A stretch of 64,000 nt of DNA from Alligator mississippiensis (Eukaryota). A program made the translations under genes and the position numbers. Shown here piece by piece: positions 24,944-35,200 of the stretch (position 1 is its first letter; every line of letters starts with the position of its first letter). The notes under the pieces were generated by a model. That model was given only the letters and a program-made list of their open reading frames with translations. It had not been told where the DNA came from and did no database searches. The stretch is taken from assembly GCF_030867095.1 (NCBI RefSeq), contig NC_081830.1:240717-304716 (forward strand), read 5' to 3'.

Positions 24944-26203
24944 TCAGGAGTAGTAGTGGGCGCCATTGAGGATGTGGGAGGAGAGACTGGCAGAGCGGCT
25001 GAGCCCGGGGTCGCCAGGGGAGCCGCCAGAGGCTGTGCGGCGCAGGGGCTGGGGGCTGTTGCGGGGGGCAGAGCCCCGCGGGGCACCAGGGGGGCCCGGC
25101 GGTGGGGGCAGCAGCCAGGCAGGGGCTGGGGCGGGCGCGGGGGCTGGGGCGGGCGGCGGGGCCAGGCGCCAGGCACCCGGGGGCAAGCCGTGGCTCCAGT
25201 GGGAGCCGGAGCGAGGCACGGGGCGCGAGGGCCAGGCAGGCGGCGCGGGGGGGCCCTCGGCAGGTGGTGCAGCCCCCAGCGCCATGCAGGCAAAGCCCAG
25301 TCGCATGCTCTCGCCGTCGAAAGCCTCGATCTCCCGTGCCTGCCGCTCCAGCAGCGCCCGGATGCGCTCCGACCGCTCTGCCTGCAGGCCTGCCATCTCC
25401 TCCTCAATCTGTGCCAGGCAAAGGGCAGAGGTCAGTGCCCGCGGGCCCAGCCCCTGGCCCACGCGGCCCCCAGGGCTCCCTCGGGCTACGTACCCGCTGC
25501 TCAAGCAGGGCACGGCGCAGGGAGAGGCGCTGCTCCAGGTCGCGGCGCTCGCGTTCGTGCTGTGCCTCTGTGTGCATCTTGATCTTGCTCTGGTAGGCAT
25601 TGAGGAGCTCCAGCTCCTGCTGCAGCTGCCGCCGCAGCCCCTGCTGCTCCGCCTCCTGCGACTCGTCCAGGCGCAGCTGCAACCGGGGCCAAGGGTCAGG
25701 GGGTGGTGGGGCGCGGGCTGGGGGCACACGAGGCCTGGGGCTCACAGGCGCGAGTGGGGGTAAAGCAGGCCCTGGCTCCTGGGGTGGGTGAAAGGGGGCC
25801 CCAGGGCTGGCTGGTTCTGGGGGGTGGGAGAGGTCTGGCTACCAGGCCTGGGGGCTGTGGCTGGCTCTGGGGTAGAAGAGGGCCATGGGGGGATGCCAGG
25901 GGCACTCATGGCCTGGGTGGGGGCCATCTCTCCGATGCCGTGGCCGTGCCAGGGGGCAGGGGCCGGGGGGCACTCACGGCCTGCGTGGACAGCATCTCGC
26001 TGATGCTGTGGTCGTACTGCTCGGCCAGCGCGGCCAGCTTGCGGGTCTGCTCATCCTTGAGGCGCTTGAGCAGGGCCTTGTGCTCAGCCTTGGCAGTGCC
26101 GTCCAGCAGGTGGGCGCGCAGGGCCTTGTACTGCCGCGTCTGGATCTTGCACGTGTCCTGGAACTGCTTCTTGATCTGCAGCTCCTTGGCCTGCAGGGGT
26201 GGG
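24944..26203 (-). CDS. TAOK2: TAOK2 alternative 3' exons 17-19 for the short (beta/TAOK1-like) C-terminus: 25977-26203, 25494-25680 and 24944-25418.
   Basis: The exons encode [29 protein letters not shown]...[15 protein letters not shown], then [40 protein letters not shown]. The last exon is [39 protein letters not shown]...[13 protein letters not shown]...[11 protein letters not shown]. They are reached from an internal donor at about 32090 in the long exon. Confidence 0.88.
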
Positions 26204-32200: not shown

Positions 32201-35200
32201 TACGTGTGCGCTGCACCGTGTGCAGCTGCCGCAGCTCCAGCTCCTGAGACGACTCGTGCTGCCGCAGCAGCATAGCACACTCCAGGTCCTTCTGCGTCTG
32301 CTTCTTGTTCAGCTCCTGGTGGGCAGGGAGAGTGCTTAGCCCCGCCCCCTGCTCCAAGCACCCAGACCCCGCCCCTTTCCACTCAAGCCTTGCCCCCTCC
32401 CCCAGGCCCTGCCCACCTCGCGCAGCAGGTCCTGGTCGAGGCCATGGCGAGCCAGGAGCAGGCGGCGCTTGTACTGGCGACACTGGAGCTCGAAATGTTG
32501 GCGCTGGCGCCGCAGCAGCCCCGCTTCCTCCTCAGCCTGACGCTGCTGCAGCGCCTCCTTCTGGCGCAGCAGCCACTCCTGCTTCTCCCGCTTGGGTGTG
32601 CTCTGGTTCTCCTGCAGCTCCTGCATGACACCCGTTCAGTGCCCGCCCGCCCACGCCCCAATGCACCGGGGCCCAAAGTGGGCCCCGGACGCCTGGGTCC
32701 TTTCTCCCAGGATCTAAAGGGGGCCCGGACGCCAAGGTTTTCTGTACCCCCCCAAAAAAGAGGCTCCCGCATGCCACAGCTCTTAACCCCAAAGCTTTAA
32801 GGGTCCTGGCTGTTAAAATTCCCTGTGCCACGAGAGGCTCCCAGACGCCAGGGTTCTTTATCGCAGGCCAACAAGGGAGTTTGCCAGCTCCCAGGAACAG
32901 GAGAGTCCCAGATACCAGGGTTCTCCATGCCCAGGAGAGGACTGTCCTGGCACCGAGATCTAAACCCATGGCTGTGCCTGGTAGGGGAGGGGCTCCCGCA
33001 GGTGCAGAGGCCTGGACACCTGGGTCCCTTTCCTGGCAGGGGGGTGAGGGGACAAGGACGCCTGGGTCCTCACCTCCTTGAGCTGCTCCTTTCGCAGCTT
33101 GTAGTGTCGTTTCTGGGCCTCAAGGAGGCCTCCCAGCTCCTTCTTCTGCTGCGCCAGGATGTGCTGCTGGAACTTCTTCTCCTCCGCCAGCGCTGCCTTG
33201 ATCTGAGGGGGCGAGGCAGCGGAGTCGGAACTGGCCTGGCCCCGCCCCCACCCCAGGCCCCGCCTCTCACAGCCAGGCCCCACCTCTTTCTCACAGATGG
33301 CCTGGTGCTTGCGGGCCAGCTTGTCGGCCTCAGCAACGCAGGACCCGCGCTGTGCCTCGAGCTCCCGCTCCAGGCGCAGCTGGTGCTCATCGCGCTCCGC
33401 ACGCAGGCGATTCTCCAGCGCCGCCAGCTGCTTCTGGTGCTGCCGCCGCATGCGCTTGTAGCCACTCAGCTGCTCCCGCAGTGCTGAGTCCTGCGCATGC
33501 TCCTGCATCTGCCGCGTCACCTGCCACCAGCCTCAGGGTCAGCCGGCCAGGCCTTGCCCCCCACTGAAAGCCTCCACCCATGGCCTGTAAGCCCCACCCG
33601 CCCGGGAGACCCCAACATCCAGACAAGCCCCATCCACAGCCCATACCACCTGCGGCCTGGAGCCCCACCCCCTGGCATTAAGCCCAGCCCCTGGCTCCCA
33701 GGCCCCGCCCAAATCGCCTGGAGAACCCAGCTCACCAGCGAGGCAGTGCGGATGGTAGCGAAGTGGTCGCGGTTGCGGCAGTAGGCGCGGCGCCGGGCGG
33801 CCGATGAACTCTGGGCCTCCATCTCAGGCTGGTATGGGTCATCATACAGGCTATCGTGGCCCTGGCAAGGGGGAGGGGGCAGGGTCTGTGGGACCTGGGC
33901 CTGCCAGGCCTCACTGCTCTCACCCCCTAGCTCTCACAGAACCCAGGAGTCCCAACTCCCAGCCCCTTCTCAACCCCCGCTCCCAAAGAAAACAGGCACT
34001 CGGTGACCCCTGCTTTCAGCAGCTAGCTCCCACCCCACAGGCAGGGGTCCCAGCCCCCCCTGCTCCAACCACCCACAGCTCAGAGGACCCAGGCATCTGG
34101 GCTCCCAGCCCCTCTGCTCTCAACCCCACCCCAAAAAACCCAGGCGTCCAGGCTCCCAGACCACCCCTCCCCCAGCCTAGAGAACCCAGGCGTCTGGCTC
34201 CCACGGTACCGGGAGGCGGTGGATGACAGAGCTGTTGGAAGCCACAGTGTGCTCGCCCTCCTGAAGCAGGGCCAGGCCAGGGCCATCATCCTCATCGGGG
34301 TCGGGGCCAGGCCCCTCGGGGTCAGAGGCCTCATCAGCCAGGCTGTTGACACTGCTGCTCTGGCTGCTGGCGCTGATGGACATGCTGGGCACTGAGTGGC
34401 TGCTGCCCACGCTGCTCACCGTGCCACCGCGTTGCACCATTGTCTCCGCCTCCTGCCGCAGTTGGGGGAGGGGGGGAGGTAAGGCTGGGTGCCATGCAGC
34501 GGGGCTGGGAGGGGGGCAGGGGCTCTCATGCACCCAGGCTGGGGGGCAGGAGCAGCAGGCGGGTGCAAGGCTGTGGGGGGCCAGTGTCGTGGGATGTACC
34601 CGGCTCTGCGGGGTCCGCATGTCCTGGCCCCCAGCCCACCCACCTCGTCATCATCAGGGCCGTCAGGGCCAGGGCCGTTGGGCGCCTCCTGGAAGAGGAT
34701 CTTCTTCATTTTGCGGTATTGCAGGTTGTCCAGCTCCCGCACTGCATCCTTGGTGCGCTGGATCAGCTCCAGCACTACCGTGGGTGGCCGTTCACGCAGC
34801 AGGAACCGGTGCTGGGGGGGCACGGAGGGGTCAGTGTGGGCTGGGGGCCTTGACCCTCCACCCCAGCCCTGGCCCCAGACTCCACCTTGAGCAGCACATC
34901 AGAGGCCGGCCGGTCCTGCGGGATCTTCTGCAGGCACGAGTCCACAAAGTTGCGGAAGTACTCCGACCTAAGGAGGGTTTGGCAGTGTTGGCCTAAAACT
35001 CGTTCAAGCCCTCCTTGTTTGTCGGACAAGTGCCGGTGGTTAAACCAGAGTTCTCCTTAATTACTCCCAAAAATTACCATGTTATCCTTTTATTTTAAGG
35101 TTCTATTGTTCCATTGTTATAAATGTTCCACGTTCCCTGGCATTTTACTGGGGTTAACTTTAAGCCGCAATCGCTACCAATTTTGAGTCATCTTGAAAAG

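Follow-up and report, generated by a model that had tools for sequence, protein, structure and literature searches.

How one gene decides between two C-terminal tails is the question raised by the TAOK2 locus of Alligator mississippiensis. We analyzed a stretch of 64,000 nucleotides (nt) of this genome (RefSeq assembly GCF_030867095.1, contig NC_081830.1, positions 240,717 to 304,716), which is called the window below; positions are counted from its first letter. In human, TAOK2 alpha (1235 amino acids, aa) and TAOK2 beta (1049 aa) have exons 1-16 (residues 1-745) in common and then diverge (PMC11014455). Mouse also has the alpha and beta isoforms (PMC6756231). The alpha isoform is a kinase of the endoplasmic reticulum (ER) membrane that tethers the ER to microtubules, and the beta isoform is soluble and acts on RhoA signaling and translation (PMC8699727, PMC6756231, PMC11014455). 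We found no paper that links TAOK2 to intronic polyadenylation or that deals with how the choice between alpha and beta is made. In the alligator gene, both tails can be read from the exon anatomy, and the interval between them carries a pair of complementary sequences, boxes A and B, that might take part in this choice.

Exon anatomy and the two tails

TAOK2 lies on the minus strand of the window, with its start codon near 37474 and the beta stop at 24944. Features are given on this strand unless otherwise stated. A caecilian TAOK2 protein aligns collinearly with the stretch between 37474 (Met1, kinase domain) and 30552. Judged from the exon anatomy, the region is very probably the 3' portion of a compact TAOK2 gene that is intact and has the standard vertebrate composite terminal exon layout, in which alpha would arise by read-through and beta by splicing.

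Exon 16, the last exon common to both isoforms, spans 32315-32076 (80 codons, ELNKKQ...QQPKSLK) and is preceded by AG at 32317-32316. Its amino acid identity is 94% to the turtle Lepidochelys kempii (locus L002) and 95% to Gekko kuhli (L005) by tblastn, and its DNA identity to the turtle is 91%. An internal donor, AAA/GTAGGT (GT at 32075-32074), stands directly after ...QQPKSLK. Beyond this donor, the alpha read-through extension runs from 32075 to 30549 with 508 alpha-specific codons and a TGA at 30551-30549. The read-through frame sits in an open reading frame (ORF) at 30549..32483. The beta-specific exons begin 4358 nt after the alpha stop. Exon 17 (26190-25978) has 71 codons, the boundaries cag/GCC and GCC/gtgagt, and 89% amino acid identity to the turtle (tblastn). 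Exon 18 (25676-25494) has 61 codons between gcag/CTG and CGG/gtacgt and is 84% identical to the turtle at the amino acid level. The coding part of exon 19 (25408-24944) starts at cacag/ATT and has 154 codons followed by a TGA at 24946-24944. Phase 0 and AG/GT are found at all junctions, and exons 17-19 joined give a beta tail of 286 aa. This tail is TAOK1/3-like, with coiled coil, and is closest to reptile TAOK2, which ends ...SHILNGSHFSYS. A stork fragment shares a few residues with it.

The same layout of exon 16, alpha extension and exons 17-19 is seen in turtle, gecko, cobra and a mammal-type contig. In L. kempii, exon 16 lies at 9662-9901, alpha ends at 11443 (stop 11441-43), and exons 17, 18 and 19 are at 14947, 15490 and 16723. 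The corresponding positions in G. kuhli are 3039-3278 for exon 16, 5171 for the alpha end, and 11030, 12587 and 14574 for the three beta exons. In the cobra Naja naja (L009), exon 16 is at 10058-10297, alpha ends at ~12.2 kb and exons 17 and 18 are at 19410 and 20659, with no match for exon 19. The mammal-type contig (L003) has exon 16 at 2531-2770, the alpha end at 4237, and exons 17, 18 and 19 at 5800, 6966 and 7231. P0163/L003 is presumably of mammal type, as judged from a search with a human alpha-tail query, which matched database proteins at 83-99% identity.

A songbird departs from this pattern. Vidua chalybeata (L001, GCA_026979565.1, 10001-25625) has a divergent TAOK2-like ortholog, which CDIPT follows here too. 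It encodes a kinase domain, a long Pro/Ser-rich low-complexity region and, in a single final exon (22158-23708), an alpha-type hydrophobic tail. In its 35-kb locus, nothing homologous to exons 16-19, with the coiled coil and the beta tail, was detectable.

The alligator gene agrees with human and mouse TAOK2 (PSK1-alpha/beta; PMC11014455, PMC6756231, PMC8699727) in three respects. The isoforms diverge after exon 16 at ...PKSLK (human residue 745). The alpha tail is encoded by reading through the exon-16 donor; a hydrophobic multi-pass region and an SxIP-type motif occur in it, and it ends in PWR. The three downstream exons give a TAOK1/3-like beta tail. The architecture is thus already known in human and mouse; its reading here is correct and is not a discovery.

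A preliminary description, made from the letters of the window, had assigned the region to TAOK2 with two C-terminal tails and had called them ancient. The exon and ORF anatomy and the homologs of both tails bear out this assignment, and so does the published human alpha/beta architecture, with exons 1-16 in both isoforms (PMC11014455). Relatives of the alpha tail as far as sharks and bony fishes justify the word ancient. As for the coordinates, exon 16, the alpha stop and the end of exon 19 were right. The starts given for exons 17 (26203-25977), 18 (25680) and 19 (25418) were not: these acceptors had been placed 13, 4 and 10 nt too far upstream, respectively, and one donor was off by 1.

The AT-rich island between the tails

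The interval between the alpha stop and exon 17 contains an AT-rich island (~27850-29990) with a GC content of 0.28-0.44 in 200-nt windows, against a window mean of 0.677. It consists of TG/TA-rich low-complexity DNA around a nested-hairpin insert and includes (GT)17 at 29864-29897. The preliminary description had presented it as the only AT-rich, CpG-poor DNA in the window, with a composite inverted-repeat element inside. The island is real and by far the largest such tract, but it is not the sole one: a small AT-rich patch of roughly 0.3-0.5 kb with a GC content of 0.40 is found at ~48700-49200, outside TAOK2. Poverty in CpG is not specific to the island, whose observed/expected ratio is 0.30 versus 0.22-0.26 in the GC-rich intron that flanks it; other 1-kb windows have 0.24-0.28.

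The composite element is present at 28416-29165 (0.75 kb). Two hairpin units of ~110-150 nt in direct orientation (28416-28522 and ~29019-29165) flank a hairpin with 91-nt arms (28612-28702/28890-28973). The RNA of 28400-29180 folds with -343 kcal/mol (z = -17). Its inverted repeats are those expected of a MITE-like element (miniature inverted-repeat transposable element). Like such palindromic non-autonomous DNA elements, it has long near-perfect hairpins and stands out as AT-rich from GC-rich surroundings. It differs from them in being present as a single copy in the 64 kb and ten fetched loci. No target-site duplication was seen on reading its flanks.

All three AATAAA found by a hexamer scan between the alpha stop and exon 17 fall inside the island, whose AT-richness would supply them. 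The first past the alpha stop, a candidate alpha poly(A) signal, is at 29567-29562, ~985 nt downstream; the other two are at 29018-29023 and 28443-28448. An ATTAAA at 27225-27220, outside the island, is a possible distal alpha poly(A) signal.

The island looks like lineage-specific low-complexity DNA with an insertion. The interval as a whole is most likely alpha 3' untranslated region (3'UTR) or downstream sequence that is AU-rich by tendency and is swollen here by microsatellite-like DNA and the insertion. The island has close to an even chance of being neutral filler with no role in isoform choice, that is, a young insertion and microsatellite expansion in the sole long non-coding stretch of a compact GC-rich gene. 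In that case, the AATAAA hexamers would simply follow from the AT-richness, and alpha would have its poly(A) site elsewhere, for example at the ATTAAA at 27225. Several observations fit such filler. The island shows no similarity in sequence to the AT-rich stretch at the corresponding place of the turtle locus, and no further copy of it was found in the window or the ten fetched loci. An alignment of its proximal edge with the distal alpha 3'UTR of turtle and squamates came down to a TG repeat; it was not significant and was dropped as evidence. An Rfam scan of 24000-33000 returned sub-threshold matches only (mir-297/466-type, sno_ZL1 and others), located in TG/TA repeats and hairpins, and these were set aside as due to chance or to repeats. 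The hairpin insert resembles a mobile element. Furthermore, the mammal-type contig has no comparable island; its alpha AATAAA lies ~420 nt after the stop, and its distance from the alpha stop to exon 17 is 1.56 kb, compared with 4.36 kb including the 2.1-kb island in the window.

Neutral filler accounts less well for the position of the island. An AT-rich stretch occurs at the same place in the turtle (L002 12400-14000, GC 0.34-0.48) and in the gecko. The only canonical AATAAA of the interval are in the island, and with 2 kb added to the distance from the alpha stop to exon 17, polyadenylation must have more time in its kinetic competition with splicing. That the island influences isoform choice, as the preliminary description had suggested, is plausible and only circumstantially supported, by the AATAAA hexamers that it carries. 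A conserved reptile 3'UTR-end block, TTTGACTGAAAA..GGAGAAAT, opens the AT-rich stretch in turtle and squamates, followed in turtles by AAAATAAA. The block TTTGACTGAAAA..GGAGAAAT(AAAATAAA) was not found in the window, which is a point against the overall reading of the region given here.

Complementary boxes around the island

Box A, AGGGGGTGAGGTGCGTTTCTGGTCCCAGCCC, is a 31-nt inverted repeat arm at 30389-30359, some 160-190 nt past the alpha stop. Box B, GGGCCGGGTCCCGAAACGCACCTCGCCCCCT, at 27170-27140, is complementary to box A and lies 950 nt before exon 17. The two pair over 31 positions with 27 Watson-Crick pairs, one G-U pair and three mismatches (-58 to -64 kcal/mol). They enclose the island and every AATAAA/ATTAAA between the alpha stop and exon 17, which are candidate signals only. 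It is these boxes, which the preliminary description had not pointed out, that are conserved in the interval. Among all sites in the intron, box B forms the strongest duplex with box A, at -64.4 kcal/mol against -53.9 kcal/mol for the best of 30 shuffled versions of box A. The pair has the core pattern AGGTGCGTTTC...GAAACGCACCT, and the 64 kb contain exactly two copies of the 11-mer core AGGTGCGTTTC, inverted with respect to each other.

The same pair is found in other sauropsids. In the L. kempii locus (24.7 kb), the core again occurs exactly twice, inverted and flanking the AT-rich stretch, and the arms (12317-12341/14210-14234) are 88% complementary. Identical boxes are present in Chelonia mydas (L010) near 34504/36409. 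The gecko boxes are near 6148/8162. Box A belongs to an alpha-3'UTR block (..TCCCAGC[T/C]CC.GAGGG) that is conserved across amniotes, being found in gecko, two squamate-like contigs and the mammal-type contig. The gecko box A has a lineage-specific half, CAGACTC, whose exact complement GAGTCTG is separated by 4 nt from box B's conserved CTGGG. In the 4.9 kb of downstream gecko intron, the best duplex partner of box A is GGAGCTGGGCGATGAGTCTG.

Pairing across the three lineages was scored in an explicit equal-length alignment, which replaced a MAFFT alignment of the boxes that had misplaced the gecko box B owing to the repeated GGAGCTG/CTGGG. In this alignment, 82.9% of cells pair, and seven of the 24 pairs change on both sides. 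When the partner is slid by 1-3 columns, pairing drops to 26-51%. Two to three of 500 shuffles reach the observed pairing values, in an alignment that covers three lineages only and is structure-guided.

It is possible, though rather less likely than not, that A and B form a conserved long-range stem of 25-31 bp in the sauropsid TAOK2 pre-mRNA, which would tune the ratio of ER-anchored alpha to soluble beta. Several points weigh against this proposal. The stem depends on three independent lineages and on a structure-guided alignment. The archelosaur duplexes (those of the alligator and both sea turtles) do not tell the strands apart, and the turtle A-B duplex is not the top-energy partner in its GC-rich intron. 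No significant partner of box A was found in the cobra or in the mammal-type contig.

The boxes might instead be no RNA stem at all. They could go back to an ancient inverted duplication or to transposon termini, or be two copies, by chance inverted, of a protein-binding or 3'-end-processing element. This is less likely than not, although part of the evidence would suit it. Box A is kept in its 3'UTR block across amniotes, including the mammals in which a partner was not found; the turtle duplex energy is unexceptional, and the cobra gave no stem. Poly(A) hexamers lie upstream of box B in all three lineages: ATTAAA at 50 nt in the window, and AATAAA at 49 nt in Lepidochelys, 48 nt in Chelonia and 112 nt in the gecko. 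These hexamers are not at aligned positions across lineages. With distances of 48-112 nt throughout, box B could instead belong to a distal 3'-end-processing region. What such elements would leave to be explained is the pattern of changes: seven pairs change on both sides between archelosaurs and gecko while complementarity is kept, and the slid controls collapse. Neutral transposon termini would not hold 88% complementarity across the divergence of turtle and alligator, which is inferred to be deep because the intron is unalignable and the alpha tails are 47% identical. In addition, the G-U pairs of the gecko favor the sense RNA, with -38.5 kcal/mol on the sense strand versus -30.3 kcal/mol on the other.

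Further sequences near the boxes were considered. A block upstream of box B shows marginal similarity between window, turtle and gecko (~11-15 of 300 shuffles reach it), and a gecko-mammal match upstream of box B is an A-rich tract; both were treated as weak. A second complementary pair, GGAAAGAATCACCT ... AGGTGATTCTTTC, with arms 340-650 nt apart, occurs in the alpha 3'UTR of turtles and squamates. Its arms are at 12020-12034/12358-12372 in L. kempii, 34201/34540 in C. mydas, 5574/6176 in the gecko, 5983/6628 in locus L006 and 6259/6859 in locus L007; the cobra has one arm only, at 12536. The window, with its much shorter proximal alpha 3'UTR, lacks this second pair. Nine degenerate ~30-nt repeats, GGAGCAAGGCATGCTGGGAGCTGGGG, immediately precede exon 17 at 26212-26737. 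They contain eight GCATG (GCAUG, the Rbfox core) on the gene strand and also give repeated CUGGGAGCUGGGG segments similar to one half of box B. At the corresponding position in the turtle (L002 ~14260-14700), another repeat array is found.

Conservation of the alpha tail

In database searches, the alpha tail comes closest to TAO2-like proteins of turtles, with no more than 46-48% identity. One frame holds throughout this alignment, up to the final residues (RRPWR, then the stop), and dozens of invariant positions cluster in functional blocks. Identity is 35% to the mammal-type alpha tail (E 1e-13) and 46% over 122 aa to a TAO2-like protein of the great white shark (E 3e-9). The human alpha-tail query also retrieved the turtle proteins (E 4e-45). 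An alpha-tail profile searched against 1.84 billion representatives gave 14 proteins; those with names were TAOK2 of caecilians, sharks, bowfin, a teleost and a songbird, and an unannotated ray protein was also among them. Homology takes in the hydrophobic multi-pass region, an amphipathic region, the SxIP-type motif and the terminal PWR. The alpha tail thus appears, from these comparisons, to be under constraint. Its composition is strongly skewed to A/G/P/R/L, which is consistent with GC-biased evolution of the tail.

Within the tail, the linker contains an array of ~14 degenerate repeats of ~11 aa, LEPDG(Q/R).., in translation at 31470-31990 (approximate bounds). Tandem Repeats Finder (TRF) detects a period of 33 with 4.3 copies at 31747-31889. 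The array is probably a disordered region. LEPDGQEA repeats are also found in turtles; the mammal-type and squamate-like linkers look different. A hydrophobic, putative membrane-spanning part follows at 30984-31295 (alpha-tail residues 261-364). Kyte-Doolittle windows of 19 aa with values of at least 1.6, the only hydrophobicity test used, occur at alpha-tail residues 261-295 and 337-364. Human alpha is reported to have six transmembrane helices at residues 941-1066 (PMC8699727), and the hydrophobic windows of the alligator tail are consistent with these. A 12-aa deletion relative to turtle LHSLFLLSGASF lies inside the hydrophobic region (~31084-31120, alpha-tail residues ~300-335), and it counts against full equivalence: the membrane topology of the alpha tail may differ from that in human.

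Near its end, the tail carries an 18-nt tandem duplication (30623-30668; TRF period 18, 2.6 copies) with two [S/T]x[I/L]P-like motifs (SRLP). In human, an EB1-binding SxIP motif is reported for the TAOK2 alpha tail, and both ER membrane insertion and microtubule binding of the tail have been shown (PMC8699727). The SxIP-like motif is doubled in the window, and the alignment has a single SRIPR/TRIPR at the same place in other species. The differences of the tail from human and mouse TAOK2 are the 35% identity to the mammal-type sequence, the LEPDG-type linker array, the 12-aa hydrophobic deletion (relative to turtles) and the tandem SxIP-like motif.

That only one tail is used, the alpha extension being a decaying relic whose frame is open since stops are rare in 72% GC DNA, is very improbable: GC-rich DNA does yield many long spurious ORFs, including one of 327 aa in another frame of the same exon, the deletion and the modest overall identity to turtles would suit decay, and the loss of the beta exons in the songbird ortholog means that tail loss does occur, but the frame is kept to the last residues with its invariant positions clustered in functional blocks, 508 open codons are unlikely by chance at a stop probability of ~1.7% per codon (estimated from base composition), and the conserved box A follows the alpha stop.

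A possible switch between splicing and polyadenylation

If the exon-16 donor is left unused, translation would continue for 508 codons into the alpha tail with its linker, multi-pass segment, SxIP-like SRLP motifs and PWR. Use of the donor would lead to exons 17-19 and the 286-aa TAOK1/3-like tail of beta. The alpha/beta ratio would then be set by splicing of intron 16 versus cleavage and polyadenylation within the 4.36 kb past the alpha stop. We infer this competition from how genes with composite terminal exons work. If boxes A and B pair in the pre-mRNA, the island with its poly(A) signals would be looped out, and the effective intron would become shorter. Pairing would favor splicing to exon 17 and thus beta, and failed or delayed pairing would lead to polyadenylation and thus alpha. 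That A-B pairing loops out the island and favors beta splicing is, given the complementarity and the position of the boxes, a possibility somewhat short of an even chance.

Switches that use a composite terminal exon or intronic polyadenylation are well known, as with the secreted and membrane forms of immunoglobulin mu. TAOK2 is like the immunoglobulin mu type in that one donor versus a downstream poly(A) site would decide on a membrane-anchoring C-terminus. It is different in that the read-through form is the membrane-anchored one.

For control by RNA structure, there are precedents as well. Pairs of conserved complementary regions (PCCRs) are enriched around intronic 3' ends, and Drosophila Nmnat has a splicing/polyadenylation switch (PMC8052449, PMC2724269). 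As in switches of this type, TAOK2 has two conserved intronic boxes that are kilobases apart and show complementarity along 25-31 nt. Between them lie candidate poly(A) signals for an alternative 3' end, and apparent compensatory changes are seen between lineages. Unlike those cases, the TAOK2 boxes were detected only in sauropsids (the alligator, sea turtles and gecko) and from sequence alone. TAOK2 has 0 occurrences in the main text of the PCCR paper, which is human-based.

Genomic context and the end of the gene

A KCTD13-like gene (43800-45400, plus strand) lies upstream of TAOK2, and CDIPT (17000-18200, minus strand) lies downstream, as judged by tblastx against the turtle and songbird loci. 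The same comparison gave a further conserved exon at 19151-19333. This synteny fits a 16p11.2-type neighborhood. In the hexamer scan, an AATAAA at 24087-24082, ~860 nt past the beta stop, is likely to be the terminal poly(A) signal of the gene. A (CA)18 microsatellite occupies 24860-24895 in the beta 3'UTR, ~50 nt past the beta stop.

Significance for TAOK2 biology

The two tails mean very different cell biology for TAOK2. A sauropsid gene of very high GC content has both of them, under constraint, and the alpha tail has relatives as far as sharks; the dual design is therefore old, and no new principle is involved. The practical value lies in a corrected gene model for TAOK2 at this locus. The box pair is the one lead that could open something new: if real, it would be a testable cis-element for the alpha/beta choice. 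If the proposed pairing is true, it would represent an undescribed vertebrate switch between splicing and polyadenylation that is controlled by RNA structure, in a gene linked to 16p11.2 neurodevelopmental disorders.

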